Assembly (NCBI GenBank): GCA_963727235.1
Contig: CAVSFZ010000026.1
Span: 65,286 to 129,285 of the forward strand
Direction: 5' to 3'
Length of the DNA stretch: 64,000 nucleotides
Origin: an uncultured Actinomycetes bacterium
Lineage (GTDB): Bacteria; Actinomycetota; Thermoleophilia; Gaiellales; JAICJC01
The translations under genes and the position numbers were made by a program. Under the pieces are notes generated by a model. That model saw nothing but the letters and a program-made list of their open reading frames with translations, ran no database searches and was not told where the DNA came from. This document shows positions 7,834 through 63,483 of the stretch, piece by piece. Within the stretch, counting starts at the first letter, position 1. Each line of letters begins with the position of its first letter.

Positions 7834-7864
7834 CGAGCGGGGGCGACGGAGCCGCCCCCGCTCG
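7834..7864 (-). terminator. GC-rich hairpin downstream of the small ORF 7870-8112 (putative terminator, no U-tract)
   Basis: Perfect 11-bp stem, CGAGCGGGGGC (7834-7844) with GCCCCCGCTCG (7854-7864), and a 9-nt loop. It lies between a gene end and the dnaE start. Confidence 0.35.
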
Positions 7865-16810: not shown

Positions 16811-16843
16811 GTGAATAAAAGGTGCCTGGCACCTTTTATTCAC
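16811..16843. repeat. palindromic element, copy 1 (33-nt perfect palindrome); probable bidirectional terminator
   Basis: GTGAATAAAAGGTGCC-T-GGCACCTTTTATTCAC. The rluD stop TGA (16840-16842) lies inside it. An A-tract and a T-tract flank the GC core. Confidence 0.85.
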
Positions 16844-36299: not shown

Positions 36300-36554
36300 A
36301 TGGCGAAGCGAACGTCTGTTCGACAGATCGGCCTCCCCCGCAAGGTCAGGGTGATCTGCGACCGCGACGGCATCCCCACCGCCGTCGCCGATCGCTCGGT
36401 GGAGCATGTGCGCGACGAGTGGCGGGTGGATGAGGGCTGGTGGACGGGGAACAGGACGCATCGCCGCTATTTCGACCTGGTGCTTGAAGACGGCCGCAAC
36501 GTGGTGGTCTTCTGGGATCACCGCGGCCACCAGTGGTTCGGCCAGCGGGTGTGA
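36300..36554 (+). CDS. 84-aa protein resembling a stand-alone ImuB C-terminal module
   Basis: The segment EWRVDEGWWTGNRTHRRYFDLVLEDGRNVVVFWDHRGHQWFGQRV matches the GWW-x(n)-R[DR]Y[FY]-x(n)-G-x(n)-W pattern I recall at the C-terminus of long ImuB proteins. The stop TGA lies inside palindrome copy 2. Confidence 0.5.
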   Translation: MAKRTSVRQIGLPRKVRVICDRDGIPTAVADRSVEHVRDEWRVDEGWWTGNRTHRRYFDLVLEDGRNVVVFWDHRGHQWFGQRV

Positions 36555-36586
36555 ATAATTGGTGCCTGGCACCAATTATTCACACC
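36548..36586. repeat. palindromic element, copy 2 (39-nt perfect palindrome)
   Basis: GGTGTGAATAATTGGTGCC-T-GGCACCAATTATTCACACC. Contains the stop codon of ORF 36300-36554. Confidence 0.85.
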
Positions 36587-36935
36587 TCGGATCAATCACG
36601 GCTGGCGCGGCGGGCGGAGCGGAGGCGTGGCAAAGCCACGTTGAGCACCGCACCACCGCGTGGGACGCCGCCAGAACCGGCGCGGACCAGCCTCAGAGTA
36701 GGTGTGGCCGGCGCCTCAGTGAGACGCCGGCCACAGGGAGGGCCTGACGAAGACGACCGGGGTTGTCACTCCTGCTGGGGAGGCGTGATCGTCATCGCCA
36801 GACAAGGTGAATACTACGGGGTATTTGCCAAGATTTCACGGGTAGAAGTGTTACAGATCAGTCACAAAACACTCGCTAACCCCATTGCAAACGAATAATG
36901 GACAGACCGAAATAGGGCAGTTTCCAGATCCTGGC

Positions 36936-45944: not shown

Positions 45945-46781
45945 TCAGGCCCGGGTACCCTCGCGGGCCGCGCGCCGGCGCTCGCTGACCAGCTCGGCAA
46001 CGCGGGCAGCGGCCTCTTCGATCGCCAGCCCCGACACGTCGATCACCGGGCAGCCCAGCCGGCGGTGGAGCGACGAGGCCAGCTCCAGCTCGTCGTAGAT
46101 CTCCGACAGGTCGGCATACCTGGCGTTGGCTCCGGCCGCCAGCGCCCGCACTCGGCGGGCACGGATCTCGGCCAATCGCTCGGCGTCGATGGTGAGGCCC
46201 ACAACTTTCCATGGATCGACCGAGAACAGCCCGGGAGGCGGATCGATGCCGCGCACGATCGGGACGTTGGCGGCCATGTAGCCGAGGTAGCCGAGATGCA
46301 TGGAGGTGGGCGTCTTGGATGTCCTGGACACGCCCACGAGCACGATCTCGGCGTGGTTGAGATCGTCAGAGCCGCGCCCGTCGTCGTGCTTGACCGCGAA
46401 CTCGATCGCCGCGATCCGCCGGAAGTACTGGGCATCCAGCGGCGCCGTGCGGCCGGGGAGCATGGTGGCCTGGGTGCCCGACGCAGTGGTGATCGCGTGC
46501 AGCGCCGGGCTGAGCACGTCGAGTGTCACCAGCCGGTTGCGGCGCGCCAGGTCGACGATCGCCTCACGCAGCCCGGAGTCGACCAGGGTGTAGAACACCA
46601 CCGCCGGCCGGCCGGTGGCATCGTCCAGTGCCCGTGCGAGCTGCTCCTCGGTCTGCACGCGGGCGTGCCTGACCATGTCGATCTCCACGTCCTCGTACTG
46701 ATGGGTGGCCGCCCGGGCCACCCGAGCGGCGGTGTCCCCGGTCGAGTCGGAGACGATGTGAATCTCGAGCTTCTCGGGCAT
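45945..46781 (-). CDS. PPDK/PEP-synthase regulatory protein (bifunctional kinase/pyrophosphorylase, DUF299)
   Basis: IHIVSDSTGDTA N-terminus and the P-loop-like GVSRTSKTPTS. Immediately upstream of ppdK. Confidence 0.9.
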   Translation of the reverse strand: MPEKLEIHIVSDSTGDTAARVARAATHQYEDVEIDMVRHARVQTEEQLARALDDATGRPAVVFYTLVDSGLREAIVDLARRNRLVTLDVLSPALHAITTASGTQATMLPGRTAPLDAQYFRRIAAIEFAVKHDDGRGSDDLNHAEIVLVGVSRTSKTPTSMHLGYLGYMAANVPIVRGIDPPPGLFSVDPWKVVGLTIDAERLAEIRARRVRALAAGANARYADLSEIYDELELASSLHRRLGCPVIDVSGLAIEEAAARVAELVSERRRAAREGTRA

Positions 46782-46791
46782 CCTGACCAGT

Positions 46792-48729
46792 CTATCCGGG
46801 GAGTTCCTCGAAGTCGCCCAGCCTGCGCAGGCAGCTCGCCACCGCCGCTGCGAGCCCCAGGCGGTTTTGGCGGACGTCCTCGTCGGGGTCCATCACCAGC
46901 ACCTGATCGAAGAAGGTACTCACCGGCGCCACCAGCGCGGTGGCGGCGGCCAGCGCCTTGGGCGCGTCATCACGGGCTGCATCGATCCGTGCCCGCGTTT
47001 CGGTCACAGCGGCGTACAAGGCCAACTCAGCCGGCTCGGACAGCCGGTCGGGGTCGACCTGATCACGTGCATCGCCCGCAATCCGGCGGGAGCGCGAGTA
47101 CACGTCGCGCAGAGCGGCTCGATCCGGTTCCGCGGCGGAGTGCAGCGCCCGGGCGAGCGCGGCCACCGCCGCCGGCTCGGTCTCACCCGATCCGCGTGCC
47201 GCGCGCACCTCCTCCACGGTCACGCCGTCGTCGGTCAGCGCCGTCTCGATCCGGTCGAGCACGAACGGGACAGCCCGTGGCCCGACCATCTCCTCCAGGC
47301 CGATCCTCCACCCCCGGTCGAGCGCCACCGCCACCAGCCCGGCCGCGGTCCGGCGCAGGCCGTATGGATCGCGGCTGCCGGTGGGCTCGAGTCCCAGCCC
47401 GAACGCAACCGCCAGCGTATCGGCCTTGTCGGCGATCGACACCGCCGCACCGGCGTCGCCGGCCGGTCGCGCCCCGGCAAACCCGTACGGCAGGTGATGT
47501 TCCTCGATCGCCTTTGCGGCCTGCTCGTCGACTCCCGCCCGGCGTGCGTACACCGCCCCGGCGTAGCCCTCGAGGTCAGAGAACTCGCCCACCAGGTTGG
47601 ACACCAGGTCAGCCTTGGCCAGCTCGGCCGCCCGCACCGCCGCCGCCGCGGTGGCGGAATCCAGCTGCAGCCGCTCACACAGGCCCTGCGTCAGGCTGCG
47701 CACGCGGGCGGTCTTCTCGGCGATCGATCCTGAGCCCTCCAGGAAGCTCACCCGGTCGAGCTCGGCTGCCATCGCCTCGATGCCCCGGCCGAGGTCGGCC
47801 GCAAACGCGAACTCGGCGTCGGTCAGCCGCCCGACCAGCACCGCCTCGTTTCCCCGGATCACCGTCTCGGGATCACCGCCGTTTGCGACGAAGAGGAACC
47901 GCGGCTCCAGCCGATCGCCGGATCGCACCGGGAAGTACCGCTGGTGCGACTGCATGGCGGTGATCACCACGCGTTCGGGCAACTCCAAAAAACGTTCGTC
48001 GATACGCCCGCTCAGCACCGACGGCCACTCGGCCAGGTAGACGACCTCGTCCAGCTTGCGCAGCGGGTCGACCCACTCGCCGGCGTCGCTCAGCTCTCGC
48101 TCGATCAGCTCTCGGCGTTCCACCGCCGCCACCATCACGTGGGCAGACCGCAGATCGCTGCGATAGCTGGTGGCGCTTCCCACCTCCACCGGGCCGGCCA
48201 GGAACCGATGGCCGCGCGACACGCCGGTCGCAACCAGGCCGAACAGCTCCACCGGAACCACCTGATGGTCGAGCTTGACCACCAGCCAGCGCACGGGGCG
48301 AGAGAAGCGGCCGTGGTCCCACCGCATCGACTTGGAGAAGTTGAGCGCGCCGGTGAGCTGCGCGGCCAGCTCGGGTACCAGCTCAGCCACCGGGGTCGCC
48401 GCCCCGTCGGTGATTGCCCACATCAGCCCGTCGCGCTCCACCAGGTCGTCCACCTCGAGGCCATGCTTGCGCGCAAACCCGGCGCGGGCCTGCTCGGGTG
48501 CATCGGCCTTGGGTCCGCGCACCTCGGCGCGCTTGGCGGCCCGCTCGGCGGGCAGCCCGGTCGCGATCGCTGCGATCCGGCGCGGACTCACGTGCACGCC
48601 CACGGTGTTGGCATCCAGCCCCAGCCGGTCGAGCCCGTCGGCCAGCAGTCCGGGCACCTGGCGCTCGGCCTCGCGGCACGCGACCGCGGGCAGATCCTCG
48701 CAGCCGATCTCCATCAGCAGATCAGGCAC
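46792..48729 (-). CDS. glyS: glycine--tRNA ligase beta subunit
   Basis: 645 aa with [15 protein letters not shown]-terminus. 8-nt overlap with glyQ. Confidence 0.93.
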
Positions 48730-49582
48730 CGGCCTCCTCGACCTCCAGATACATCGCCGCCACCGCCTGCGACAGGCGCCTCATCCGCAGTACGTACGCA
48801 GCCCGGTCGGTGACCGCGATCGCCCGCCGCGAATCGAGCAGGTTGAATGCGTGCGAGCACTTCAGCACGAAGTCGTACGCCGGCAGCGGCAGCCTTGCCT
48901 CGACGCAGCGGCGGGCCTCGGCCTCGAACTCGTCGAAGTGGCGCGCGTGCATCGCGGTGTCGGCCAGCTCGTAGTTGTAGGTGGACATCTGGCGCTCGTT
49001 CTGGAAGTACACGTCGGCCCAGCTGACCCCCTCCGACCAGTGCACGTCCTGCACCCGCTCCACGCCCTGGAGGTACATCGCAAGCCGCTCCAGGCCGTAG
49101 GCCAGCTCACACGAGATCGGGTCGAGCTCGATCCCCCCGGCCTGCTGGAAGTAGGTGAACTGCGTGATCTCCATGCCGTCCAGCCACACCTCCCAGCCGA
49201 GCCCCGCCGCTCCCAGGCTGGGATTTTCCCAATTGTCTTCGACAAACCGGATGTCGTGCCGGGCGACGTCGATGCCGATTCGCGCGAGCGATGCCAGGTA
49301 GATGTCCTGCATGTCGTCGGGAGCCGGCTTCAGGATCACCTGGTACTGGTAGAACTGCTGGAACCGGAAGGGGTTCTCACCGTAGCGGCCGTCGTCCGGA
49401 CGGATCGACGGCTCCACGTAGCCGGTGCGCCACGGCTTGGGGCCGAGCACCCTGAGGAAGGTCGCCGGATTCGAGGTGCCCGCGCCGACCTCCGTGTGGT
49501 ACGGCTGCATGATCGTGCAGCCCTGCTCCTCCCAGTAGCCTTGGAGGGCGCTGATCATCCCCTGGAAGGTGAGCGCGGCCAT
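48722..49582 (-). CDS. glyQ: glycine--tRNA ligase alpha subunit
   Basis: [39 protein letters not shown], a highly conserved GlyQ N-terminus. Confidence 0.96.
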
Positions 49583-49623
49583 CGGAGCGAGAAGCTATCA
49601 GGAGCGGGCCTGCGAGCGCCCCG

Positions 49624-50361
49624 TCATGCGCGCAGGGTGCGCAGCTGGAAGCCGCCGTGGTACTCGTATGTGCGCTCCAGCACACGCAGCGCGTCACGGG
49701 TCGCGCGCAGTCGGGGACGCGGCTCTCCCAGCGGCAGCGCGAGCATCTGCTCGATTGCGGTGAGACTCTCCAGCTCCACGGCAAACGTGCCCGCCTGGCC
49801 GAGGCACTCATCACAGACAGCACCGCCTGCCGCCGGCGAGTACCCGGCCAGCGGCCCGGGCGAGCCGCACGCCGCGCACGCGGTGAGGTGCGGCAGATAG
49901 CCGCTCAGCATCAGCAGTTTCAGCTGAAACCCGAGGCCGAGCGGATCCAGCGCGGGATCGGCGTCGGAGCTCGCCGTCCAGGTCTCGAGCAGCGTCAGAA
50001 ACCGGTTCAAGCCGGCGAACATCTGAGGCTGAGGCTCCGGCTCGGTATTCAGCTTCAGCACCGCCTCGGCCCCGATCTGGCCGACGGCGAGGTTGTAGGT
50101 GCGCTCACGGACGGCGGCGTGGGAGCGGATGATGTCGGCGCCGGAAACCGTGTGCAGGTCACCGCGACCCTCGTGCAGCATCAGCGCGACGTGGGTGAGC
50201 GGCTCGAGCCGCCCGCCGAACCTCGATCCGGTCTTGCGCACGCCCTTGGCGATCGCATTCACCCGGCCCCGCTCGGATGTGAACAGGTGCAGCACCCGAT
50301 CGGCCTCCGAGAACCTGATCGACCGCAGCACCACCGCCTCGGTCTTGTATGACCTCCCCAT
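49624..50361 (-). CDS. recO: DNA repair protein RecO
   Basis: The ATG at 50361 gives MGRSYKTEAVVLRSIRFSEADRVLHLFTSERGRVNAIAKG. A C-terminal Cys cluster reads CAACGS...CDEC. Confidence 0.9.
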   Translation of the reverse strand: MGRSYKTEAVVLRSIRFSEADRVLHLFTSERGRVNAIAKGVRKTGSRFGGRLEPLTHVALMLHEGRGDLHTVSGADIIRSHAAVRERTYNLAVGQIGAEAVLKLNTEPEPQPQMFAGLNRFLTLLETWTASSDADPALDPLGLGFQLKLLMLSGYLPHLTACAACGSPGPLAGYSPAAGGAVCDECLGQAGTFAVELESLTAIEQMLALPLGEPRPRLRATRDALRVLERTYEYHGGFQLRTLRA

Positions 50362-50371
50362 TCCTGGGAGC

Positions 50372-51211
50372 CTACCGGCGGGGCTGGCGGGTGCAGTTCG
50401 GGCAGTAGTAGGTTCCGCGCTGCGCCACCCGGATCTTTCGGATCGGCCGGCCGCAGCGGGGACAGGGCTCGCCCTCCCGGCCGTAGGCGTTGAACCGTTC
50501 CTGCATCGTGCCGGACTGGCCGTCGACTCCTCGGTAGTCGCGGATGCTCGCCCCCTGCGCGGCAATCCCTCGCTCGAGCACCGCAATCACCGCAGCATGC
50601 ACCCGCTTGATCTCTGCGGTTCGCAGCGACCCGGCGAGCCGCTCCGGGTGGATCCGGGCCTCCCACAGCGCCTCGTCGGCGTAGATGTTGCCCACGCCGG
50701 CGACGATCTGCTGATTCAGGAGCACCGCCTTGATCGCGGCCGTGCGGCCGGCGATGGCATCGCGCAGGTCCTGCCACCTCCAGTCGGGCGAGAGCGGTTC
50801 GGGTCCCGCCCGCCGGCTGAGGTAGCGGTCAAGGCCACCCGGTTCGATGATGCGCATGGTGCCAAACCGGCGCTGATCCGAGTACAGCAGGAGCGCGCCG
50901 TCGTCCAGCTCAACCCGGGCGCGGAGATGCCGTACGTCGACGGCCGGCGCTTCCCGAGCCTGATGGTGGAACCAGCCCGTCATGCGCAGATGCACGACCA
51001 GTGTGCGGCCGCTCTCGAGCATGATCAGGAGGTACTTGCCGCGCCGGCCGATCGAGACGACCCGGTCGCCGTCGAGCTCCATGCCGATCATGATCGGGTC
51101 GTCAGGCGCGGTCAGGCGCCCGTCCAGGATCTCTGCCCGCTCGATCACACGTCCGGCCAGCCGGGGCTCCAGCCCGCGGCGCACCGTCTCGACCTCAGGC
51201 AGCTCGGGCAT
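50372..51211 (-). CDS. mutM: formamidopyrimidine-DNA glycosylase
   Basis: MPELPEVETVRRGL N-terminus and a C-terminal zinc finger CPRCG...YYCPNC. Confidence 0.94.
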   Translation of the reverse strand: MPELPEVETVRRGLEPRLAGRVIERAEILDGRLTAPDDPIMIGMELDGDRVVSIGRRGKYLLIMLESGRTLVVHLRMTGWFHHQAREAPAVDVRHLRARVELDDGALLLYSDQRRFGTMRIIEPGGLDRYLSRRAGPEPLSPDWRWQDLRDAIAGRTAAIKAVLLNQQIVAGVGNIYADEALWEARIHPERLAGSLRTAEIKRVHAAVIAVLERGIAAQGASIRDYRGVDGQSGTMQERFNAYGREGEPCPRCGRPIRKIRVAQRGTYYCPNCTRQPRR

Positions 51212-52488
51212 CAGACGATCTCCAGCACTGTCTCGGTGGGCTGTGGCTCATGATCGCCGATTGCAAAGCAGGCCGCCGCTGAGGCGATGTCCGGCTCCGT
51301 CCGGGCGTGGATGGTTGCCAGCGGCTGCCCGGGCTCCACCCGTGTGCCGGCCTTGGCGTGCACCACCACCCCCACCGCATGGTCGATATCTGCGCCGACC
51401 TCGGTTCGGCCGGCCCCGAGTCGCATGGCGACATCTGCGATCCCACGGGCGCTGCAGCGCGTCACCCAGCCCCGCTGTGATGCGGGCACATCCACGACGA
51501 TCGGCGCGGTCGGCAGGCGTGCGTCCGGGTCTCCCCCCTGAGCGCCCACCCACCGTCGGAACGCGGCCAGACCGGCCCCGGACTCGAGCGCCCGCACCGC
51601 GGCGCCGCGATCACCGGTGAGCAGGCCGGTGGCCGTGATGCAGACCTCCACCAGATCAGCCGGCCCTCCACCTGACAGCGTGGCCACCGCCTCGGCCACC
51701 TCCAGGGAGTTCCCCACGGCGGCTCCCAGCGGCTCGTCCATTGCCGTCAGCATGCAGGTGGTGTCGACCCCGGCCGCCTCTCCGAGCCGGCGCATGGTGG
51801 CGGCAAGCTCGTGCGCATCGGCGCGCTCCTGCATGAATGCGCCCTCGCCGACCTTCACGTCCAGCACCAGACGGCGGGCCCCCGCAGCGAGCTTCTTGGA
51901 CATGATGCTGGTGGCGATCAGGGGAATCGACGGCACCGTTGCCGTGGCGTCTCTGAGAGCGTACAGCCGCCTGTCGGCGGGCACCAGATGGAGGCTCTGG
52001 CCGGCCACCGCGATACCGATGTCGCACACCTGGGATACCAGCTCGGCGGCGCTCAGCTGGGTGCGAAAGCCGGGAATCGACTCGAGCTTGTCAAGCGTCC
52101 CGCCGGTGTGCCCGAGACCGCGTCCGGAGAGCTTTGCGATCGGCACGCCGCAGGCGGCGACCAGCGGCGCCACCACCAGGGTGGCCTTGTCGCCCACGCC
52201 TCCGGTGCTGTGCTTGTCCACGACCGTGCGCCCCACCGGGGACAGGTCGAGCCGCTCGCCGGAGTCGACCATCGCCTCCAAGAGCGCCGCCGTCTCGGCG
52301 TCGCTGAGGCCGCGCCACAGCACCGCCATCAGGAACGCCGCCAACTGGTAGTCCGGAGTCTCGGGTGCAATCAGGGTGCGGATCTCGGCCGCGGTCAGCT
52401 CACGGCCGTCGCGCTTGCGCTCCAGCGCGTGCACCGCGATCGGATCGGCCTCAGACAACCGATCGTCCGGGAAGCCGATCGTCCCCAC
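51211..52488 (-). CDS. deoA: thymidine / pyrimidine-nucleoside phosphorylase
   Basis: KRDGRELTAAEI...QLAAFLMAV...VDKHSTGGVGDK motifs. The start (GTG at 52488 or TTG at 52458) is uncertain. Confidence 0.9.
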   Translation of the reverse strand: MGTIGFPDDRLSEADPIAVHALERKRDGRELTAAEIRTLIAPETPDYQLAAFLMAVLWRGLSDAETAALLEAMVDSGERLDLSPVGRTVVDKHSTGGVGDKATLVVAPLVAACGVPIAKLSGRGLGHTGGTLDKLESIPGFRTQLSAAELVSQVCDIGIAVAGQSLHLVPADRRLYALRDATATVPSIPLIATSIMSKKLAAGARRLVLDVKVGEGAFMQERADAHELAATMRRLGEAAGVDTTCMLTAMDEPLGAAVGNSLEVAEAVATLSGGGPADLVEVCITATGLLTGDRGAAVRALESGAGLAAFRRWVGAQGGDPDARLPTAPIVVDVPASQRGWVTRCSARGIADVAMRLGAGRTEVGADIDHAVGVVVHAKAGTRVEPGQPLATIHARTEPDIASAAACFAIGDHEPQPTETVLEIV

Positions 52489-53614
52489 GCCCGGTCAGCA
52501 CCCGCGCGACCGTCGCGCCCACGTCGGCGAACGTGTCGCCGTCGTGGCGGTGGCCCAGCATCGGCGCGCCCGGGACGTGCGCCAGCAGCAGGCCGTGCTC
52601 GCGCGAGTGGTCGGTCGAGGGCGTGGTCGGATCGCAGCCGTGATCCGAGGTCAGGATCAGCAGGTCGCCGTGGTGGAGCGCCGCCATCAGATCCGGCAGG
52701 GCGGCGTCGATGTCCTCCAGCGCATCGGCGAACCCTCGGGGATCGTTTCGGTGGCCCCAGAGCATGTCGGTCTCGACCAGGTTGGTGAACACGAAGCTGC
52801 CGTCGGGCACCTCTCGCAGCAGCCGTGTGGTCACCGCCATGCCCTGACCGTTGGAGCTGGTGGGCGTCGACTGATCGATGGCGGTGCCGGCGAAGATGTC
52901 GGCGATCTTGCCCACCCCGTGCACGGTCGTACCGGAGTCGCGCAGGTGATCCAGCCAGTTCGGGCTGGGCGGTGCCAGCGAGAAGTCGTGCCGGCCCGAG
53001 GTGCGTACATACTCGCCCGGCGCACCCGCGAACGGACGCGCTATCACCCGGGCGACAGCGAGGTCGCCGACCAGCAGATCGCGGGCGATCCGGCAGGCCG
53101 TGTACAGCTCTTCGACCGGCACTGTCTGTTCGTGGGCGGCGATCTGGAACACGGAGTCGGCCGACGTGTACACGATCCAGTCGCCCGTTTGCTGGTGCTG
53201 CTCTCCCAGCCGCGCGATGATCTCGGTTCCGGAGGCGGCCTCGTTTCCGATCACTCCCCGCCCGGTGGCGTCGGAAAAGCGGGCGAGCAGGTCGGCCGGG
53301 AAGCCGTCGGGGAAGGTGGGGAACGGCTGCTCGGTGAGGATTCCCATCATCTCCCAGTGGCCGGTGGTGGTATCCATCCCGCGGCTGCGCTCGATCAGGC
53401 GGCCGTACACCGCCGGGGCATCCCGGCGTGGAGGACAGCCCCGCACCGGCAGGATGTTGCCGAGGCCAAGCGCTGTCAGCGTGGGCAGCTCGAGGCCGCC
53501 GACCGCATCGGCGACATGCTGCAGGGTGCTTGAACCGGCGGTGCCGAACTCCGCCGCGTCGGGCAGGTCGCCGGCACCCACCGCATCCAACACCAGTACA
53601 CATGCTCGGGCCAT
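52451..53614 (-). CDS. deoB: phosphopentomutase
   Basis: LVLDAVGAG..., the LWGHRND motif, and the LILTSDHGCDPT motif. 387 aa. Confidence 0.93.
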   Translation of the reverse strand: MARACVLVLDAVGAGDLPDAAEFGTAGSSTLQHVADAVGGLELPTLTALGLGNILPVRGCPPRRDAPAVYGRLIERSRGMDTTTGHWEMMGILTEQPFPTFPDGFPADLLARFSDATGRGVIGNEAASGTEIIARLGEQHQQTGDWIVYTSADSVFQIAAHEQTVPVEELYTACRIARDLLVGDLAVARVIARPFAGAPGEYVRTSGRHDFSLAPPSPNWLDHLRDSGTTVHGVGKIADIFAGTAIDQSTPTSSNGQGMAVTTRLLREVPDGSFVFTNLVETDMLWGHRNDPRGFADALEDIDAALPDLMAALHHGDLLILTSDHGCDPTTPSTDHSREHGLLLAHVPGAPMLGHRHDGDTFADVGATVARVLTGRGDDRLPGRSVV

Positions 53615-53636
53615 ACGGTGAGCCTAGATGAACAAC

Positions 53637-53669
53637 GGTGAATAGCGGTGCCTGGCACCGTTATTCACC
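53637..53669. repeat. palindromic element, copy 3 (31-nt core, one G/A arm mismatch)
   Basis: G-GTGAATAGCGGTGCC-T-GGCACCGTTATTCAC-C. Each arm is one nt shorter than in the other copies. Confidence 0.8.
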
Positions 53670-53680
53670 CCGACCGCCCG

Positions 53681-53717
53681 GCGTGAATAAATGGTGCCTG
53701 GCACCATTTATTCACGC
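53681..53717. repeat. palindromic element, copy 4 (37-nt perfect palindrome)
   Basis: GCGTGAATAAATGGTGCC-T-GGCACCATTTATTCACGC. The TAA stop of the GNAT gene (53708-53710) lies inside it. Its centre is 46 bp from the centre of copy 3. Confidence 0.85.
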
Positions 53718-54511
53718 ATTTCCCACTGGGTGAGGGGTTCGAGGCGGGCGCCCAGCGCTCGGAGGAGCGCCGAGCCGTCCTCCCAGTCCTCCGGCATCAG
53801 AGCGGGCACGCTGATCCGGGTCGCCGGAAGGGCGCGGATCAGGGCGGTCGCCCGTCCCTGGCGACGGACGGCGGGATCGACGGCCAGCGCGTACAGCCAC
53901 AGCTTGCGGCCCCGCACCTTGGTCACGGCCACGGTGTCGTCCCCCAGGGCATACGCCGGCAGCTGCAGCAACGTCTCGGGCTGAAGCTGCCAGGGAGCGT
54001 CCGGCCACCCCCAGTCGCGCAGTCTGCGCACCGCCTCGGCCGGCGCAATCGCCTCCGCGCGGGAGGATCTGCGCAGCGACTGGCGTCGCAGGCTCCAACC
54101 CACCAGCTTGCGGCGAAGCTCGAAGCCGTGCTTTTGGTACAGCGCGATCGCGCCGGAGTTCTGCTCCAGCACCTCCAGCCCCACCTGCTCGGCGCCGGCC
54201 TCGCGCAATGACTCGAGTGTCCGCTCGAGCACCGCACTGCCAATCCCCCGGCGGCGGTGTGCGATCACCGTACCCTCCCCCCGGATGCTGCCCCGCGATC
54301 CCCGCACCGCTCCCAGGCAGAACGCAACCAGGGCGCCCTCCGCGTAGGCGCCCCAGGAGAGCGCCATCGAGACTCCGGTCTCCCGCAGATACACCGACAG
54401 CGCGACCTCATCAAGGGCCGCCGGAACGGGGTAGTCCGAGAAGGCATCCTGCTGGCACTCCACGATCCGAGAGAGCTGCTCACGCTCGAGCGATCGGAGC
54501 TCCACCGCCAT
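53708..54511 (-). CDS. GNAT-family N-acetyltransferase (two-domain)
   Basis: The ATG at 54511 gives MAVELRSLEREQL.... It carries the acetyl-CoA motif HRRRGIGSAVLERTLESLREAGA and YQKHGF. The upstream track extension is junk. Confidence 0.7.
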   Translation of the reverse strand: MAVELRSLEREQLSRIVECQQDAFSDYPVPAALDEVALSVYLRETGVSMALSWGAYAEGALVAFCLGAVRGSRGSIRGEGTVIAHRRRGIGSAVLERTLESLREAGAEQVGLEVLEQNSGAIALYQKHGFELRRKLVGWSLRRQSLRRSSRAEAIAPAEAVRRLRDWGWPDAPWQLQPETLLQLPAYALGDDTVAVTKVRGRKLWLYALAVDPAVRRQGRATALIRALPATRISVPALMPEDWEDGSALLRALGARLEPLTQWEMRE

Positions 54512-54516
54512 CGGGC

Positions 54517-55416
54517 TTACGCCCGCGGATGCGCCTTGAAGTACGCCTTGCGCACGTGGTCGGCGGAGACGTGCGTATACACCTGGGTGGTCTCGATGCT
54601 CGCATGCCCGAGCATCTCCTGGACGCTTCGCAGATCGCAGCCGCCCTCGATCAGATGGGTCGCGAACGAGTGCCGAAGCGTATGCGGTGTGACTTCCTTG
54701 GTCACACCGGCCGCGCGGGCGTGGTCTCGCACCAGCTGGAACACCGCCTGGCGGGTGATCCCCTGGCCGCGATGGTTGAGGAACAGCACGTCGCCACGCT
54801 GCAGTCGCCCCAGGTACGGCCGGCCGCGCTGAAGGTACAGGCGGGCGGCCTCGGTGGCGCTCTTGCCCATCGGCACCACCCGCTGCTTCGCGCCCTTGCC
54901 CATGCACCGCACCATGCCCTCGCCCAGATCCACATCTGACACCCGCAGCGACACCAGCTCCGAGACGCGCAGACCGGCGCCGTACAGGAGCTCCAGCATC
55001 GCCCGATCGCGCAGGCCCCGAGGGCTTCCGTCGGGGCGGGTCACGATCGCCTCAGCCTCGGCCTTGGTCAGGGGTTCGGGCAGACGGCGTCCGAGTCGCG
55101 GCAAGGTGACGCTGCGGCCGGCATCGGCCCGCGCCCCCTCCCGTGCACGATGCTTGAGGAATGCCCGCACTGCCGCCAGGCGCCGGCGAACCGTTGCCGG
55201 AGAAAGACCGCGATCCGACAGCGCCACCGCATAGTCGTCCAGCACCGAGACCTGCAGCGTGTCGGGATCGGCGTGCTCGGTGAAGTCGCCAAGGTCGATC
55301 AGGTCACGGCGATAAGCCTCGACCGTGTGCGGCGATGCCCCTCGCTCGAGTTGCAGGTGGGTCAGAAAGTCTTGAAGGGTGGCGTCGTACGAACTCATAC
55401 CGGGGAGGTTCGTCAC
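54517..55416 (-). CDS. xerD: tyrosine recombinase XerD
   Basis: N-terminal SAM-like core-binding domain and the C-terminal catalytic residues ...PHTLRHSFATHLIEGGCDLRSVQEMLGHASIETTQVYTHV. Confidence 0.9.
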   Translation of the reverse strand: MTNLPGMSSYDATLQDFLTHLQLERGASPHTVEAYRRDLIDLGDFTEHADPDTLQVSVLDDYAVALSDRGLSPATVRRRLAAVRAFLKHRAREGARADAGRSVTLPRLGRRLPEPLTKAEAEAIVTRPDGSPRGLRDRAMLELLYGAGLRVSELVSLRVSDVDLGEGMVRCMGKGAKQRVVPMGKSATEAARLYLQRGRPYLGRLQRGDVLFLNHRGQGITRQAVFQLVRDHARAAGVTKEVTPHTLRHSFATHLIEGGCDLRSVQEMLGHASIETTQVYTHVSADHVRKAYFKAHPRA

Positions 55417-55446
55417 TCCCCCGCGATGTCCTGCGAGCCGTTGTGA

Positions 55447-56562
55447 TCAGATCGCGACGGCCTGCTCGAGTGGCGTATACGGGAGCCCCACAGCCTCTGC
55501 CACCGGTTCACAGGTGATCGCGCCGGCAGCCACGTTGACCCCCAGCCGAAGCGCGGAGTCGTCGGCCAGCGCCCGCTCCAGCCCCTTGTTTGCGATCGCC
55601 TCCACGTACGGCAAGGTGACGTTGGTGAGCCCCCAGGTGGAGGTGATCGGCACCGCCCCGGGCATGTTTGCCACGCAGTAGTGCACGACGTCGTCGACAA
55701 CGTAGATCGGATCCGAGTGGGTGGTCGGACGCGAGGTCTCAAAACAGCCGCCCTGATCGATTGCGACATCCACCAGCACCGACCCCGGCTTCATCGCCGA
55801 GAGCATCTCGCGACTGACCAGGTGCGGCGCCTTGGCGCCGTGGATCAGCACACCGCCGATCACCAGGTCGGCCTCCGGCAGCGCCGCCTCGATGCCATGG
55901 CGGTTCGACATCTGCAACAGCACCGTGCGTCCCAGGCTCACATCCAGTTCCCGCATGCGATCGACCGAACGCTCGAACACCGTCACATCCGCCTGCATCC
56001 CCTGGGCGATCAGCGCGGCGTTGTAGCCGACGATGCCACCCCCCAGCACGAGCACCTTGGCCGGGAGCACGCCGGGAACGCCGCCCATCAGGCGACCCCT
56101 GCCGCCGAACGGCTTCATCAGGTAGTAGGCGCCCACCTGGGCCGACAGCCGTCCGGCCACCTCGCTCATCGGCGCCAGCAGCGGCAGCCGCCGGTCGGGC
56201 GTCTCCACCGTCTCATAGGCGATGCAGGTCGCTCCCGTTCCTGCCAGCCCGCGGGTCAGCTCTGCCGCCGCGGCCAGGTGCAGGTAGGTGAAAAGGATCT
56301 TCCCGGGTTGAAGCCGCTGCCATTCGCCGTCCAGCGGCTCCTTGACCTTCAGCACCATGTCGGAGTCCGACCACACGTCGTCCACCGACACGACCGTGGC
56401 ACCGGCGGCGCGATAGTCGTCGTCGCTCATCGAGCTTCCCTCGCCGGCACCCTGCTCGATCAGCACCCGGTGGCCGTGACTCACCAGCTCGACCACGCCG
56501 GCTGTGGTCAGCGCAACCCGGTACTCGTCCGGCTTGATCTCTCTCGCAACTCCGATGTTCAT
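55447..56562 (-). CDS. ald: alanine dehydrogenase
   Basis: MNIGVAREIKPDEYRVALTTAGV... and the VLVLGGGIVG NAD-binding motif. 371 aa. Confidence 0.93.
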   Translation of the reverse strand: MNIGVAREIKPDEYRVALTTAGVVELVSHGHRVLIEQGAGEGSSMSDDDYRAAGATVVSVDDVWSDSDMVLKVKEPLDGEWQRLQPGKILFTYLHLAAAAELTRGLAGTGATCIAYETVETPDRRLPLLAPMSEVAGRLSAQVGAYYLMKPFGGRGRLMGGVPGVLPAKVLVLGGGIVGYNAALIAQGMQADVTVFERSVDRMRELDVSLGRTVLLQMSNRHGIEAALPEADLVIGGVLIHGAKAPHLVSREMLSAMKPGSVLVDVAIDQGGCFETSRPTTHSDPIYVVDDVVHYCVANMPGAVPITSTWGLTNVTLPYVEAIANKGLERALADDSALRLGVNVAAGAITCEPVAEAVGLPYTPLEQAVAI

Positions 56563-56577
56563 GAACCTGCCCTCCGG

Positions 56578-57708
56578 TCAGCGCGGCTGAGGATTCTCGA
56601 GCGATCTCGCTTGGGTGATCAGCTCCAGCGTAACCGCTGTCATGGCCTCGAGGTCGGACACCGTGATGTGCTCCGATGCGGTGTGGATCTCGGCCATGCC
56701 GTTGCACAGGTTGACGCACGGCATTCCGGCGGCGTTGAAGACGTTGGCATCCGACCCGCCGCCCGACTCGAGCGACGCCGGTGTATGGCCCCGCGCTGCC
56801 AGTGCCGCCGTGGCGAGGCGCACGGCGGGATGTGAGCGCGAGAAGCGATAGCCCTCGTACTCCGACGTGATCGTGGATTCGAGTTGGCACTCGTACAGGT
56901 TGGCGGCGTGGGTGGCGACGTCGAGCATCTCCCGAGCCACGGCCGCAACCCGATCCGGGTCGCGGCTGCGGGCCTCCGCCATCACCGTGCACTCGGGCGG
57001 GACGATGTTTCCGGCAATCCCGCCGCGAATCAGCCCGACGTTGGCGGTCGTCTCCGAATCGATCCGGCCCAGCCGCATGTCGGCGACGGCGCGGGCCGCG
57101 GCGGCGATGGCACTTCTCCCCTGCTCCGGGGCGATCCCCGAATGGGCCGCCCGGCCCTGGAAGTGCAGGCGCAGGGTGCGCTGTGTGGGGGCGGCCATCA
57201 CGATGTTGCCGATCGGTGCCGCGTGGTCGTAGCAGTAGCCGAACGCGGCTCGCAGACGTGAGACATCGAACTGCTTGGCACCGCGCAGGCCCACCTCCTC
57301 CATCGGCGTCAGCACCAGCTCGATCCCCGAGTGGTCGATGCGGTCGGCCACCACCTGCTCGACGGCCGCCACCATGGCAGCGACCGCCGCCTTGTTATCA
57401 GCTCCCAGGATCGTCTCCTCGGCGTTGACCACCACGCCGTTTCGCACCTCGGGCCGGATCGGGGCGGTGGCAGGCACGGTGTCGAGGTGGGCATTCAGGA
57501 AGATCGGCGTGCCGGTGTCGACGGTGGGCGCCAGCCGGGCGTACAGATTCCCGATCTGCGAACCGATGGCCGCCCCGGCCGCGTCCTCGTCCACCTCCAC
57601 CCCGACCGCCGCCAGGCGGGCGGCGACCACATCGGCGACCGCCCGTTCCTCGCCGGGCGGGCTGGAGATCCCCGCCAACTCGAGGAACAGGTCGAGCACC
57701 GGGGTCAC
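56578..57708 (-). CDS. M20-family metallopeptidase (peptidase-T-like)
   Basis: The GTG at 57708 (GTGA overlap with the M32 stop) gives VTPVLDLFLELAGISSPPGEE. Carries HLDTV and EE.G metal-ligand motifs. Confidence 0.8.
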   Translation of the reverse strand: MTPVLDLFLELAGISSPPGEERAVADVVAARLAAVGVEVDEDAAGAAIGSQIGNLYARLAPTVDTGTPIFLNAHLDTVPATAPIRPEVRNGVVVNAEETILGADNKAAVAAMVAAVEQVVADRIDHSGIELVLTPMEEVGLRGAKQFDVSRLRAAFGYCYDHAAPIGNIVMAAPTQRTLRLHFQGRAAHSGIAPEQGRSAIAAAARAVADMRLGRIDSETTANVGLIRGGIAGNIVPPECTVMAEARSRDPDRVAAVAREMLDVATHAANLYECQLESTITSEYEGYRFSRSHPAVRLATAALAARGHTPASLESGGGSDANVFNAAGMPCVNLCNGMAEIHTASEHITVSDLEAMTAVTLELITQARSLENPQPR

Positions 57709-59213
57709 GCGGGTGCCAATCCGTACAGCGGACCGAACTTGGCCCACAGGTAGCGCATCAGCGGCCGGTGATCGAGCGCTCCCCCCGTCACTCGCTCGAT
57801 CAGCTCAGGGCCCTCGTACAGCGACCCGGGCTGATGGATGTGCTCTCGCAGCCAGCCCAACAGCGGCCCGAACTCGCCGACGGCGATCTGACCATCGACG
57901 TCAGGCAGGTCGCGACGCAGCCGCTCCCACAGCATGGCCGAGTAGATCGTTCCCAGGGTATAGGTCGGGAAGTACCCGAACGCGCCGCCCGACCAGTGGG
58001 TGTCCTGAAGCACGCCGTCGCCGTCGTGCGGCGGGCGGATCCCGAGGTGGCGCTGATACGCGTCGTTCCACGCGCCGGGGAGATCGGCGACCTCGAGCTC
58101 GCCGCGCATCAACGCCAGCTCCAGCTCGAACCGGATCAGCACGTGCAGGTTGTAGGTGACCTCGTCTGCGTCCACCCGGATCAGGGAGGCCCGCACGGTG
58201 TTGACGTGGCGGTAGACGTCCTCCGGGGAGGTGCCGGCCATCGGCGCCCCCAGGACATCACAGATCACGGGCGTGTAGTGCTGCCAGAAGCCGCGGCTGC
58301 GCCCGACCACGTTCTCCCACAACCGCGACTGCGACTCGTGCAGCCCGAGCGACGGCGGAGAGCTGACCGGGAGGTCCTCATAGGCCTGGTCCATGCCCTG
58401 CTCGTACAGCCCGTGGCCGGCCTCGTGGATCGTGCCCATCACCGATGGGAACGGGTCGTCGGCATACATCCGGGTGGTGATCCTGACGTCGCGAATGGCG
58501 ATTGCCGTCGAGAAGGGATGGGCGGAGAGATCCAGCCGCCCCGACTCCAGGTCGTATCCGAGATCCGGCAGTATCCGCAGGCTGAATCGCATCTGGGCGT
58601 CGTCGGGAAACGTTCTCCCGGCAAACGGCGGAGCCGGCAGCGGTTCCGCCGCAAGGATCTGATCCAGCAGCTCCGAGAGATCGCCCATGAGCGCCGCGAA
58701 CATCGGCTCCACCTGCGCCGTGCGCATCCCCGGCTCGTAGTCCTCGAGCAGCGCGTCGTAGCGCTCGCCGTCGTGACCGAGCAGGTCGGCCTGCTCGCGC
58801 TTGAGCGCCACCATCTCCTCCAGATGGGGCTGAAACAGCGCGAAGTCCTGCTGCGCTCGAGCCTCCTGCCACACGACGTTTCCACGCGTGGCAGTCATCC
58901 CGATCCGCCGCACCAGCTCGTCGGGCAGCCGCAGCGAACGATCGCGGTCGTGCCGCACCAGCCTCACGACCGCCGCCTGGTGGGGGTCCAGCGGTCCGCC
59001 CTCGGCCGCGTCCAGCAGCTCCCCCAGCTCGGGGGCGATCATCTGACGGTGCCGCAGCACTGCCACCGTCGACGTCGCCCGCGCTCTGGCCTCCACCCCG
59101 CCGGTGGGCATCGTCGTCTGACGATCCCACGAGAGCAGCGCCAGCACACGACCCAGCTCACCCAGCTCGCGCACGCGCTGCTCGAGCGCTTCCCAGGTCT
59201 CCTCGGCGGTCAC
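57705..59213 (-). CDS. M32 carboxypeptidase (Taq-type)
   Basis: HEAGHGLYEQG zinc motif, SAHPFS, and the HESQSRLWEN segment. 502 aa. Confidence 0.9.
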   Translation of the reverse strand: MTAEETWEALEQRVRELGELGRVLALLSWDRQTTMPTGGVEARARATSTVAVLRHRQMIAPELGELLDAAEGGPLDPHQAAVVRLVRHDRDRSLRLPDELVRRIGMTATRGNVVWQEARAQQDFALFQPHLEEMVALKREQADLLGHDGERYDALLEDYEPGMRTAQVEPMFAALMGDLSELLDQILAAEPLPAPPFAGRTFPDDAQMRFSLRILPDLGYDLESGRLDLSAHPFSTAIAIRDVRITTRMYADDPFPSVMGTIHEAGHGLYEQGMDQAYEDLPVSSPPSLGLHESQSRLWENVVGRSRGFWQHYTPVICDVLGAPMAGTSPEDVYRHVNTVRASLIRVDADEVTYNLHVLIRFELELALMRGELEVADLPGAWNDAYQRHLGIRPPHDGDGVLQDTHWSGGAFGYFPTYTLGTIYSAMLWERLRRDLPDVDGQIAVGEFGPLLGWLREHIHQPGSLYEGPELIERVTGGALDHRPLMRYLWAKFGPLYGLAPA

Positions 59214-59217
59214 CTGG

Positions 59218-60897
<1,680 letters not shown>

Positions 60898-60982
60898 TCA
60901 ACGTGTGACCGGTTACGGGATATGAATCATACGTGAGCAACGTGACGTCACCGTCCTGGGACGGCTCCCACGGCGGGTGGTT

Positions 60983-62656
60983 TCACGCACGTTGCGGGCT
61001 TTTGCGCAGCGCTTCGGCGTGCCGGCGAACGGTTTGGTCATCGTCATCGCCCCCCAGCATGCGCGCGAGCTCGTCGGTGAGAGCGTCGCCTTGGAGCAGC
61101 TGAACGGTGGTCTGGGTGGGATCGCCGGCCAGCTTCTCGACCCGGAAGTGGGCATCGGCCAGACTCGCGATCTGCGGGAGATGCGTGATCGAGATCACCT
61201 GCGCCTGCTCGGCCAGCCTTTTCAGCTTCTCGCCCACCGCCCGTGCGGTGAGCCCTCCCACACCGGCGTCGACCTCATCCAGGACGAGCGTCTCGGGTCC
61301 GCCGTGAGCACGCGCGGCCACCCGGATCGCCAGCGCGATCCGCGACAGCTCGCCGCCCGAGGCCGTGCTGGCCAGCGGGGCCGGGTCGAGCCCGGGGTTG
61401 GCGGCCAGCAGCAACTCGCAGCGATCTGCACCGCGGGCGCCCAGAGGAGCGTCGGTCAGCTCGACCACCAGCCGAGCCCCGTCCATGCCCAGGTCGGACA
61501 GCTCCTGCTCCACCGCCCGGGCGAATCCCTTGGCGGCCTTGGCGCGGGCGGCGTGGAGCTTGACCGCGGCGGCGTCGGCACGCTCTTGGGCGGCGTGCTC
61601 AGCGGCCTCGAGCTGCGCAATTGCGTCTCCCGATTGGTCGAGCAGATCAAGCGCCTCGCGGGCCTCCGCGGCGCGCGCCAGCACCTGATCGAGCGACCCG
61701 CCGAACCGGCGCTCGAGCTCTGCGAACAGCTCCAGCCGCTGCTCTATCGCCTCCAGCCGGCCGGGGTCGGCCTCGAGGTCGGCGGTGTGGCCGCGCAGCT
61801 CGGCGGTCGCCTCCTGCAGCCGCACACCGGCGTCGCGCAGCTCGGCCGAAACTGCCGCGAGGCTCGGCTCGAACCGCTCCGCGTCGGCCACCAGCTGCGA
61901 GGCCTGGGCGATCACCGTCTGGGCGCCGTCACCCTCGTCTGGCGACAGCAGTGCAATCGCACCGGTGATCGCGGCGGCCAGCTCGTCGAGGTGCCGCAGC
62001 CGCTCGCGCTCGACGGTGATCAGCTCGCGTTCTCCGGGCGCCACCTCGGCCGCGTCCACCCGCTCGACCAGATATTCGAGCTCCCCGCGGCGGCGGACGG
62101 CCTCCGCGGCGTGTTCGCGGGCGTCGGCGAGGGCAGCCCGAGCGGCCCGCAGCTCACTCCAGGCGGCGGCCATCGCGGCCAGCCGCCCGCCGTTGCCGGC
62201 GTGGCCGTCGAGCAGTGCCATCTGCACCGCGGGCTTGGCGATCCTCTGGGCCTCGTGTTGGGACGACAGCTCCAGCAGCCGCTCACCCAGCAGCTCGAGG
62301 TCGGTTCTGGCGCAGCTTCGCCCCCACACCAGTGCGCGGGTGCGGCCGGTGGCGAACACGCGCCGCGCGACCACCAGCGTGTCCTCTCCCTCGGGCCGGA
62401 GACCGGCCACCGCTTCCAGCGCCGGGTCATCCAGAAGCCCCTGGGGCAGCGCGAACTCCGCCTCCACGTAGGCCTCCTCGGCATGCGGCCCGACCGGCGC
62501 CGACCCGGGCTGGCCGCCGGCCAGCAGGCCGATCGCCTGGGCGAGCATGGTCTTGCCCGCACCGGTCTCGCCCGTGAACACCGACAGCCCCGAGGCGGGC
62601 TCGAGCTCGGCGTGCTCGATCAGGGCGAGGTTTTGAATGACCAGGCGCAGCAGCAT
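60983..62656 (-). CDS. recN: DNA repair protein RecN
   Basis: Walker A motif FTGETGAGKTML, a long coiled coil, and a C-terminal SGGELSRI...LVLDEVDAG motif. Confidence 0.95.
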   Translation of the reverse strand: MLLRLVIQNLALIEHAELEPASGLSVFTGETGAGKTMLAQAIGLLAGGQPGSAPVGPHAEEAYVEAEFALPQGLLDDPALEAVAGLRPEGEDTLVVARRVFATGRTRALVWGRSCARTDLELLGERLLELSSQHEAQRIAKPAVQMALLDGHAGNGGRLAAMAAAWSELRAARAALADAREHAAEAVRRRGELEYLVERVDAAEVAPGERELITVERERLRHLDELAAAITGAIALLSPDEGDGAQTVIAQASQLVADAERFEPSLAAVSAELRDAGVRLQEATAELRGHTADLEADPGRLEAIEQRLELFAELERRFGGSLDQVLARAAEAREALDLLDQSGDAIAQLEAAEHAAQERADAAAVKLHAARAKAAKGFARAVEQELSDLGMDGARLVVELTDAPLGARGADRCELLLAANPGLDPAPLASTASGGELSRIALAIRVAARAHGGPETLVLDEVDAGVGGLTARAVGEKLKRLAEQAQVISITHLPQIASLADAHFRVEKLAGDPTQTTVQLLQGDALTDELARMLGGDDDDQTVRRHAEALRKSPQRA

Positions 62657-62658
62657 CG

Positions 62659-63483
62659 TCAGCCCGAGAACGTCTGGCGGTAGCGGCTGAAGAACGACGT
62701 ATCCGACAATCGCCCCAACCTGGCGAATGCATCCCCCATGGTGACGGCGAATCGCCCGCCGGGCGGGACATCACCGGCGATGTGGCCATCCACGATCACC
62801 TGTACCGGCACGTCCACCGAGCGGTTGTGCAGCTCCACGCGATGGGGCCGGCCGAGCACCATCGATCGGGCGTGCAGGGAGTGCGGAGAAACGAACGACA
62901 CCACGAAGCCGTCCAGCCCCCAGGCCAGCACCGGGCCGCCCGCCGACAGGTTGTAGGCGGTCGAGCCGGTGGAGGTGGCGACGATCACGCCGTCGCAGCC
63001 GAGCTCTCCCAGCGACTGGCCGTCGACGCACCACTCCACCAGGGCCATGCGCCCCAGCAGCCCACTGGTCAGCACGATGTCGTTGATGCCGGTGAGCGTG
63101 CCCTGACCGGCGTCGCCGACGATGGTCGGCAGCCGCAGCTCCTCGAAGTCGCCCGCGAACGCACGCTCCAGTCCCTGCTCGAGATCGTCCGCGTCGATCG
63201 AGGTGAGAAAGCCGACCCGGCCGAAGTTGACGCCCAGGCACACCGCCCGGAACGGCAGCGCGGCCTGCAGCGCCCGCAGCATGGTGCCGTCGCCGCCGAG
63301 CACCACGATCATCTCGGCCCGATCGGCGTCGACCAGCCTCACGCCCAGGCGGTCGGCCAGCACCGCCACCCGCTCGGCGGCATCCCCGATCCGCTCAGGT
63401 CGCCCGTGGGTGAACAGGCTGGCCGTGCTGATCGCCCGGCCCGGTTGGGCCGAGGACGGCATCTGCGATCTGGGACTCGACAT
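62659..63483 (-). CDS. nadK: NAD kinase
   Basis: GGDGTMLRA motif and NFGRVGFL. The start is uncertain (ATG at 63483 or 63462) and overlaps the tlyA 3' end. Confidence 0.85.
   Translation of the reverse strand: MSSPRSQMPSSAQPGRAISTASLFTHGRPERIGDAAERVAVLADRLGVRLVDADRAEMIVVLGGDGTMLRALQAALPFRAVCLGVNFGRVGFLTSIDADDLEQGLERAFAGDFEELRLPTIVGDAGQGTLTGINDIVLTSGLLGRMALVEWCVDGQSLGELGCDGVIVATSTGSTAYNLSAGGPVLAWGLDGFVVSFVSPHSLHARSMVLGRPHRVELHNRSVDVPVQVIVDGHIAGDVPPGGRFAVTMGDAFARLGRLSDTSFFSRYRQTFSG

Follow-up and report, generated by a model that had tools for sequence, protein, structure and literature searches.

A dispersed palindromic repeat with terminator-like features at gene ends in Gaiellales

Introduction

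In Mycobacterium, Gardner et al. (2011; RNIE) described the Tuberculosis Rho-independent terminator (TRIT) motif, a conserved palindromic and mostly bidirectional hairpin with 147 copies. It overlaps the end of the coding sequence within a very narrow range of positions and explains most structured gene termini, and they suggested recognition by a dedicated factor (PMC3152330). Here we describe a palindromic repeat for which TRIT appears to be the closest described analogue, the two being likened by description and not by sequence. Our sample was a 64,000-nt stretch of contig CAVSFZ010000026.1 (assembly GCA_963727235.1) from an uncultured member of the Gaiellales (JAICJC01); we call this whole stretch the window and use its numbering throughout. 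Two palindromes stand in tandem there between a GNAT acetyltransferase gene and deoB, and they almost certainly belong to a repeat family dispersed in Gaiellales. We infer that this family probably serves as bidirectional intrinsic terminators or 3'-end hairpins.

The Gaiellales repeat and TRIT have much in common. Each is a palindromic hairpin conserved in both sequence and structure, present in more than 100 copies, mostly bidirectional, closely tied to gene termini, and held in a narrow position overlapping stop codons; each also explains the majority of strongly structured gene ends in its high-G+C actinobacterial host, where canonical terminators are few. They differ in range, TRIT being reported from Mycobacterium only and the present repeat coming from Gaiellales/Thermoleophilia, and in build, the Gaiellales repeat having A/T-rich arms with TGA and TAA in two frames and defined short and long subtypes.

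Two further kinds of conserved palindrome have been linked to termination. In Neisseria and Pasteurellaceae, inverted pairs of DNA uptake sequences (DUS) or uptake signal sequences (USS) form terminator stems (Kingsford et al. 2007, PMC1852404), and for repetitive extragenic palindromes (REPs) a double role in termination and mRNA stabilisation has been proposed (bioRxiv 10.64898/2026.03.23.713779).

The repeat family

The two palindromes of the pair have their centres at 53653 and 53699, 46 bp apart, and all of these values bear out the original prediction (Table 1). Copy 4, on the GNAT side, was returned by a repeat finder as a perfect palindrome. Copy 3, on the deoB side, has 16-nt arms that are 94% complementary, the sole asymmetry being G53645 opposite T53661. 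The tandem pair is therefore real, as had been claimed, but it is not unique, with two further copies (copies 1 and 2) elsewhere in the window. The family unit is 31–33 bp long and reads G-TGAATA-N2-3-GGTGCC-W-GGCACC-N2-3-TATTCA-C. Its edges are sharp (G at -1, C at +1), with complementarity at background level farther out. In copy 4 the core unit is G-TGAATA-AAT-GGTGCC-T-GGCACC-ATT-TATTCA-C (53683–53715), and the palindrome is 2 bp longer on each side. Subtypes are set by the spacers: short elements have 2-nt spacers, mostly AC/GT, and long elements have 3-nt spacers (AAA/TTT, AAT/ATT, ATT/AAT, ACC/GGT and others).

Chance does not account for the window copies. Three exact matches to the full motif, together with copy 3, compare with 0.00 expected in 100 shuffles, and the 13-nt core with at most one mismatch has six matches vs 0.79 expected in shuffles. 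A motif scan of a species-representative genome collection gave at least 95 stretches (L001–L095) from at least 19 assemblies, and our family-wide counts rest on the stretches listed. We then used a covariance model, R1, derived from an alignment (A1) of 53 long-type copies. Searched against 837 kb of listed loci, R1 found ~137 copies, few of them degenerate; searched against the window, it found the four known copies only. Note that the A/T-rich boxes were fixed in the search pattern, so their invariance in alignment A1 is uninformative. None of the 95 pattern-scan loci contained orthologues of window proteins (tblastn).

All but one of the assemblies with listed stretches are labelled uncultured Actinomycetes (Microflora Danica metagenome-assembled genomes, MAGs), Gaiellales, Thermoleophilia or Actinomycetota. 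As a negative control we used a metagenome scan with deoB, which gave 80 loci (L096–L175, 63–74% identity, ~460 kb, from soil metagenomes). No copies of the family occur in these loci, which also show no synteny with the window junction. There were likewise none in the IMG/VR viral contigs, so viral carriage was rejected. Rfam gave nothing at gathering thresholds for the whole window, and a permissive search of 53550–53800 gave sub-threshold microRNA and small-RNA noise. Literature searches on the motif string, Gaiellales palindromes, Thermoleophilia terminators, and actinobacterial REPs and REP-associated tyrosine transposases (RAYTs) returned nothing relevant. The family is restricted to the Gaiellales/Thermoleophilia lineage and is previously undescribed.

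The exceptional label belongs to an uncultured Eggerthellaceae contig (CAMOTA010000028.1, L056), with a single imperfect copy at 68–96, the very start of the contig, and with spacers CG/GG. This copy could be due to chance, a binning contaminant or a distant relative. At two other loci, both from CAVSNF (L044 7320–7348 and L052 1517–1545), the flanks of the element are identical on two contigs of one MAG, which suggests a duplicated region or redundant contigs.

Position relative to genes and stop codons

Genes were called with our own GC3-based caller, by which the window is 89% coding and has 57 genes, 47 of them on the - strand. Elements with two called neighbours number 101, and these neighbours are convergent in 62 cases (61%), co-directional in 36 and divergent in 3 (3%). 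The corresponding baseline junctions number 142, 430 and 136. No copies were found deep inside genes beyond gene-calling noise. This family-wide distribution backs the earlier suggestion that the elements look terminator-like, and the repeat has the location expected of an intrinsic terminator, i.e., the end of the transcription unit. The window copies are all at operon boundaries: lspA-rluD / rpsB, a small open reading frame (ORF) / dnaE, and xerD-GNAT / deoB.

The relationship with stop codons is closer still. Among 172 gene 3' ends that face an element, 68 (40%) have their stop inside it, either at the TGA of TGAATA (43) or at the TAA of TGAATAA (25), and a further 29 stop within 12 nt, making 57% inside or at most 12 nt away. 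Because each arm carries both TGA and TAA, the element often provides the stop codon of the preceding gene. The GNAT gene illustrates this. Its - strand ORF ends at a TAA inside copy 4, as predicted, in the '-7' configuration found at the 25 gene ends that use this TAA. In many convergent pairs both genes stop in one shared element, which is then the whole intergenic region (~25 nt).

A bulged arm variant, TGAAGTAATT, recurs at several loci (L014 5497–5531, L022 6131–6164, L033 5254–5288, L045 4454–4486 and L181 3885–3918). The bulge puts TAA into the third reading frame, which is the one that the TGAATAA arm leaves open.

Inverted DUS/USS pairs are likewise conserved sequences that build hairpin stems of terminators at many operon ends (PMC1852404), and the Gaiellales half-site might by that precedent be a DNA uptake signal whose inverted pairs double as terminators. 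However, USS/DUS copies are mostly single and many are intragenic, whereas the Gaiellales repeat has no population of single half-sites: 245 half-sites are inside full elements vs 10 outside, and nearly all of the latter are degenerate full copies. The essential absence of isolated half-sites excludes a DUS/USS-like system, so we consider uptake signalling highly improbable.

Hairpin structure

Spacers pair by Watson-Crick rules in 83% of cases, with more than 12 spacer combinations. Their covariation score is 0.182 vs 0.067 in shuffles, with 0/500 shuffles as high, and it is also well above slide controls. Compensatory changes can be seen in orthologous copies as well, both in the spacers (AAT/ATT to ATT/AAT) and in the core (GGTGCC/GGCACC to GGAGCC/GGCTCC, in L180).

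RNA folding predicts -9 to -10 kcal/mol for the inner hairpin and -20 to -26 kcal/mol for the full palindrome. The inner hairpin is made of GGUGC/GCACC, two or three spacer pairs and a 3-nt loop, and is thus of the kind expected in an intrinsic terminator (~5–10 bp, G+C-rich). The layout of the transcript is the same on either strand: an A-rich tract, a GC hairpin and a U-rich tract (UAUUCA, with U-rich spacers before it in several subtypes). A canonical bidirectional intrinsic terminator shares this three-part arrangement on both strands, and it shares the convergent placement. It differs in having no sequence common to genes, and the U-tract of the Gaiellales repeat is short and interrupted. 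The tail UAUUCA(C) is invariant, giving 3–6 U within the 8 nt past the GC stem, depending on the subtype, where the canonical U-tract is 7–9 nt.

In a crude survey of minimum free energy (MFE), the surplus of very stable gene ends in these loci matches the element-bearing ends. As a general detector of terminators, MFE of gene ends was rejected as uninformative, because the genome is 68–70% G+C and gene ends and intragenic controls share the same mean.

History of the junction in relatives

Searching for deoB homologues with 76–94% identity gave 11 syntenic loci (L176 and L178–L187), so 12 junctions including the window could be compared. Two elements are present in the window, L176, L178, L179, L181 and L182; one is present in L180 and L183; and none is present in L184 (82% identity) or in L185–L187 (76–78%), the last three of which also lack the GNAT gene. 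The tandem arrangement is thus found in five independent assemblies, so it is not an assembly artefact, and since relatives carry zero, one or two copies, the tandem pair is a derived, gained state.

The element has changed within the junction as well. The upstream copy has AAT/ATT spacers in the window and L183, AAT/AT in L182 (a 1-nt indel), ATT/AAT in L179 and L181 (a compensated base-pair flip), and short-type AC/GT in L176 and L178, while L180 has the compensated core change given above. The orthologues of copy 3 in L178 and L179 are perfect palindromes with AC/GT spacers, so the mismatch in copy 3 is derived. The original prediction had drawn attention to this asymmetry as a G:U pair on one transcript and a C/A mismatch on the other, but it is a recent single substitution. 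Linkers between tandem copies in orthologous junctions diverge faster than the elements do.

The end of the GNAT gene shifts as well. The GNAT stop is the element's TAA in the window, L179, L180 and L181, and the element's TGA in L183. In L176 and L178 the gene reads through the first element to the TGA of the second, and in L182 it ends at a TAG past both. The protein is consequently called 11–14 residues longer by read-through (L176/L178 3115–3951, L182 3146–3991). Protein C-termini are thus remodelled by elements, which can also mislead gene callers.

In some long-read MAG contigs of this set, ald, fpg and other conserved genes are split (L178 1054–2171, L179 6404–7244, L180 1–1702); the split ald lies in L178. 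Split genes in related contigs indicate indel errors, so caution is needed with single-base indels in element variants (e.g., L176 3949–3977), and some of those among orthologues may be assembly errors.

The syntenic junctions also bear on the neighbouring xerD gene. The position of xerD, one gene away from the pair, is as the original prediction gave it, and that proximity might make the elements recombination sites for Xer or another recombinase. A dif site has two 11-nt arms and a 6–8-nt centre, and the repeat does not resemble this layout. Furthermore, the elements are dispersed among unrelated neighbours, and xerD-deoB synteny exists without the element. The proximity is therefore coincidental, and a role as a recombination site is hardly credible.

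The predicted deoB promoter

As predicted, 22 nt (53615–53636) lie between copy 3 and the deoB ATG, and they contain no Shine-Dalgarno sequence. The deoB start is conserved, with homologues aligning from residue 1. Exactly 6 nt before the ATG or GTG, all 12 syntenic orthologues have a TANNNT box (TAGGCT, TAGGGT or TACCCT; at 3983–4003 in loci L176–L187), and the intervening 6 nt vary. The box is also in the four syntenic relatives without the element. Among distant orthologues from the metagenome scan, which doubled as a promoter test, 55/64 have TANNNT at the same position, mostly as TAGAAT, compared to a background of 0.08% per position.

A -10 box at -12 to -7 from the start codon is the signature of a leaderless mRNA, which is common in Actinobacteria. 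Since the box is conserved in position and there is no Shine-Dalgarno sequence, a leaderless deoB mRNA is implied, and the sequence indicates that it is deeply conserved and made from deoB's own promoter. The original prediction asked for a deoB promoter inside or overlapping the element if the pair terminates transcription. It was right in that a predicted promoter is close by, but the TAGGCT box lies outside the element. Copy 3 covers -23 to -55 relative to the deoB start, so the pair sits where a terminator or insulator would, immediately ahead of an independent promoter.

It had also been proposed that the TGAATA and TATTCA of the arms, 17 nt apart, have a weak -35/-10-like geometry and so might form a promoter. 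That spacing is correct for copy 3 but not for copy 4, where it is 19 nt. A related possibility is that the palindrome is an operator for a dimeric regulator of deoB. It can be said for these ideas that copy 3 overlies the -35 region of the predicted deoB promoter and that the boxes of the short type are 17 nt apart. Against this, only three of 101 copies have divergent neighbours, and many copies are convergent with both stop codons inside the element. Box spacing varies from 17 to 19 nt, and this variation, together with compensatory spacer changes, favours a hairpin over a promoter or operator. TATTCA lacks the T at -7, and a scan of 46000–64000 found no sigma-70-like site. Finally, the deoB -10 box and its spacing are kept in relatives without the element, so the TGAATA/TATTCA boxes are not its promoter. 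We therefore regard a promoter or operator role as very unlikely.

Table 1. Positions of the repeat copies and of the features around the tandem pair.
Feature	Position	Strand	Details
Copy 1, long type (AAA/TTT)	16811..16843	none	holds the TGA stop of an rluD-like gene; 139 nt upstream of rpsB
Copy 2, long type (ATT/AAT)	36551..36583	none	holds the TGA stop of an 84-aa + strand ORF; upstream of dnaE
deoB (phosphopentomutase)	52451..53614, ATG 53612-53614	-	Pfam PF01676; homologues named phosphopentomutase
TAGGCT, putative -10 hexamer (TANNNT) of leaderless deoB promoter	53621..53626	-	-12..-7 from A of ATG
CCGTTGTTCA, degenerate tandem duplicate of the last 10 nt of the copy 3 arm (CCGTTATTCA)	53629..53638	-	
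Copy 3, short type, 2-nt spacers	53637..53669, core 53638-53668	none	R1 39.4 bits
Linker between core units, G+C-rich, not conserved	53669..53682	none	tandem-pair linkers unrelated between loci
Copy 4, long type	53681..53717	none	perfect 18+1+18; R1 58.3 bits; RNA hairpin -26.4 kcal/mol
GNAT TAA stop	53708..53710	-	positions 5-7 of the element's TGAATAA arm
GNAT acetyltransferase gene, upstream of the pair	53708..54511	-	Pfam PF00583, E=5.8e-18
xerD-like tyrosine recombinase gene, neighbour of the GNAT gene	54517..55416	-	Pfam PF00589/PF02899

Two long G+C-rich palindromes in the window are outside the family: TGTGGCCGGCGCCTCAGTGAGACGCCGGCCACA (36703–36735), which follows copy 2 by ~120 nt and precedes dnaE, and CGAGCGGGGGCGACGGAGCCGCCCCCGCTCG (7834–7864).

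Tandem pairs, polarity and spread

About 10 independent loci have two copies. Their centres are 44–49 nt apart at seven loci, and 53, 56 and 62 nt apart at the others, so the window pair is a typical tandem pair of the family. We rejected the idea that such pairs are a fixed composite unit, as their linkers are unrelated G+C-rich sequence. A preference for pairing a short with a long element was also rejected: ~8 mixed vs 4 same-type pairs do not differ from chance.

The original prediction described the window pair as head-to-tail. Its two copies do agree in having a central T on the + strand, but nothing else supports an orientation for the pair. Across the family, the central base does define a polarity. 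When it is set to T, mismatched pairs comprise 22 T(5' arm).G(3' arm), 3 G.T and 3 C.A or A.C, and elements whose central base reads A on the strand carrying most genes of the locus outnumber the others 57 to 26 (p ~0.001), both counts being inflated by founder effects and orthologous copies. Most of the polar mismatches belong to a subfamily with TTT/GGN spacers, which occurs at 12 unrelated loci in 3 genomes. Convergent (27:13) and co-directional (20:11) contexts show much the same orientation trend, and all four window copies follow it, with T on the + strand and 47/57 genes on the - strand. The central base had no significant relationship with GC skew (p = 0.11). Dominant spacer variants differ genome by genome, i.e., there are genome-specific subfamilies. 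Polarity and subfamilies fit a REP-like spread of polar master copies, and the family would seem to have spread by some copying process.

At several independent loci, a tandem duplicate of the end of the arm (its last 10–11 nt, CCGTTATTCA or CCATTTATTCA) lies immediately beyond the element: in the window at 53629–53638, in L181 at ~3958–3985 (where CCGTTATTCA occurs three times), in L064 at 1968–1990 and in L065 at 5916–5936. Slippage between CACC repeats may have produced this duplication, or the copying of the element may have left it as a footprint.

REPs and the bacterial interspersed mosaic elements (BIMEs) built from them, known from enterobacteria and pseudomonads, can be compared with the family. 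Like the Gaiellales repeat, they are 20–40-nt extragenic palindromes of high copy number with species-specific subfamilies and tandem clusters, they favour 3' ends and convergent intergenic regions, and their presence varies between strains. Unlike them, the Gaiellales palindromes are near perfect, with a polarity that comes only from the central base and some subfamily wobbles, and they have stop codons built in and a host of another phylum. They also lack the GTAG-type 5' tetranucleotide that marks a REP, the unit starting with G-TGAATA. A miniature inverted-repeat transposable element (MITE) was rejected: the unit is 31–33 bp vs 50–500 bp, there are no flanking direct repeats, and the flanks are unrelated.

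One could accordingly see the repeats as selfish, REP/MITE-like mobile palindromes, copied by a strand-specific enzyme (e.g., RAYT/Y1-HUH), which persist at gene ends only because insertions are tolerated there, with the built-in stop codons as a help, and for which termination is incidental. The genome-specific subfamilies speak for this, as do the asymmetric variants that recur at unrelated loci (the TGAAGTAATT bulge and the TTT/GGN spacers), the mismatch polarity fixed relative to the central base and the 57:26 orientation bias. So do the gain and loss of copies between close relatives, the difference in subtype at one site, the narrow tandem spacing (as in BIMEs) and the scarcity of degenerate copies. 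On the other hand, neither a transposase nor, more specifically, a RAYT was found beside the 8 multi-element loci, a weak test judged from the N-termini of neighbours at those loci. No target-site duplications, flanking direct repeats or GTAG-like tetranucleotides were seen around the copies, and the family is absent from viral contigs. Between orthologues, the elements are kept better than the linkers, and substitutions in them are compensatory. We consider a purely selfish element rather unlikely, but as an account of origin it is compatible with the terminator reading.

Function

A family of bidirectional terminators or 3'-end hairpins remains the reading that we favour. Its A/T box, GC hairpin and second A/T box would act together as a two-way terminator and as a hairpin protecting the 3' end. 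At the junction studied here, copy 4 supplies the GNAT stop codon, the two copies together would terminate or insulate xerD-GNAT transcription, and deoB would restart directly downstream from its own leaderless promoter (TAGGCT, 6 nt before the ATG). The family would have spread by copying, with gain and loss between relatives, and copies would then have been kept at operon ends.

Several observations weigh against this reading. The U-tract is weak, a simple terminator scan left the elements unflagged, and mycobacterial RNA polymerase is reported to require a U-tract (PMC3993855). In the window, the strand that folds best (with central T and the G:T wobble) is antisense to the flanking genes. 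A hairpin terminator has no need of a strictly conserved 13-nt core, and a purely symmetric terminator does not predict a fixed mismatch polarity and a ~2:1 orientation bias. As for TRIT, its predicted sites show little agreement with Term-seq ends in M. tuberculosis (bioRxiv 10.1101/2022.06.01.494293), and termination by TRIT is itself unproven and doubtful.

A more speculative proposal would join the two lines of thought, making the repeat a mobile stop-plus-terminator cassette with a polarity. Here, strand-specific copying of a single strand (HUH/Y1-type or other) would carry the repeat to gene ends, and a dedicated protein would recognise the invariant GGTGCC-W-GGCACC/TGAATA hairpin. We offer this tentatively and do not think it probable. 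If true, it would explain the strict sequence conservation, the 22:3 T.G polarity and the 2:1 orientation bias (as following gene or replication direction), and its logic would extend to the TRIT motif.

Implications

Gaiellales are abundant uncultured soil actinobacteria. For the punctuation of transcription in their MAGs, an operon-end motif of 31–33 bp is a direct annotation tool, and it explains gene-caller artefacts where ORFs read through. The element is also a candidate compact bidirectional terminator for high-G+C hosts. Beside TRIT, actinobacteria now have a second, independent example of a terminator-like palindrome with a conserved sequence, and comparison offers a way to ask why the sequence of such hairpins stays fixed, whether for a dedicated factor or through mobility.

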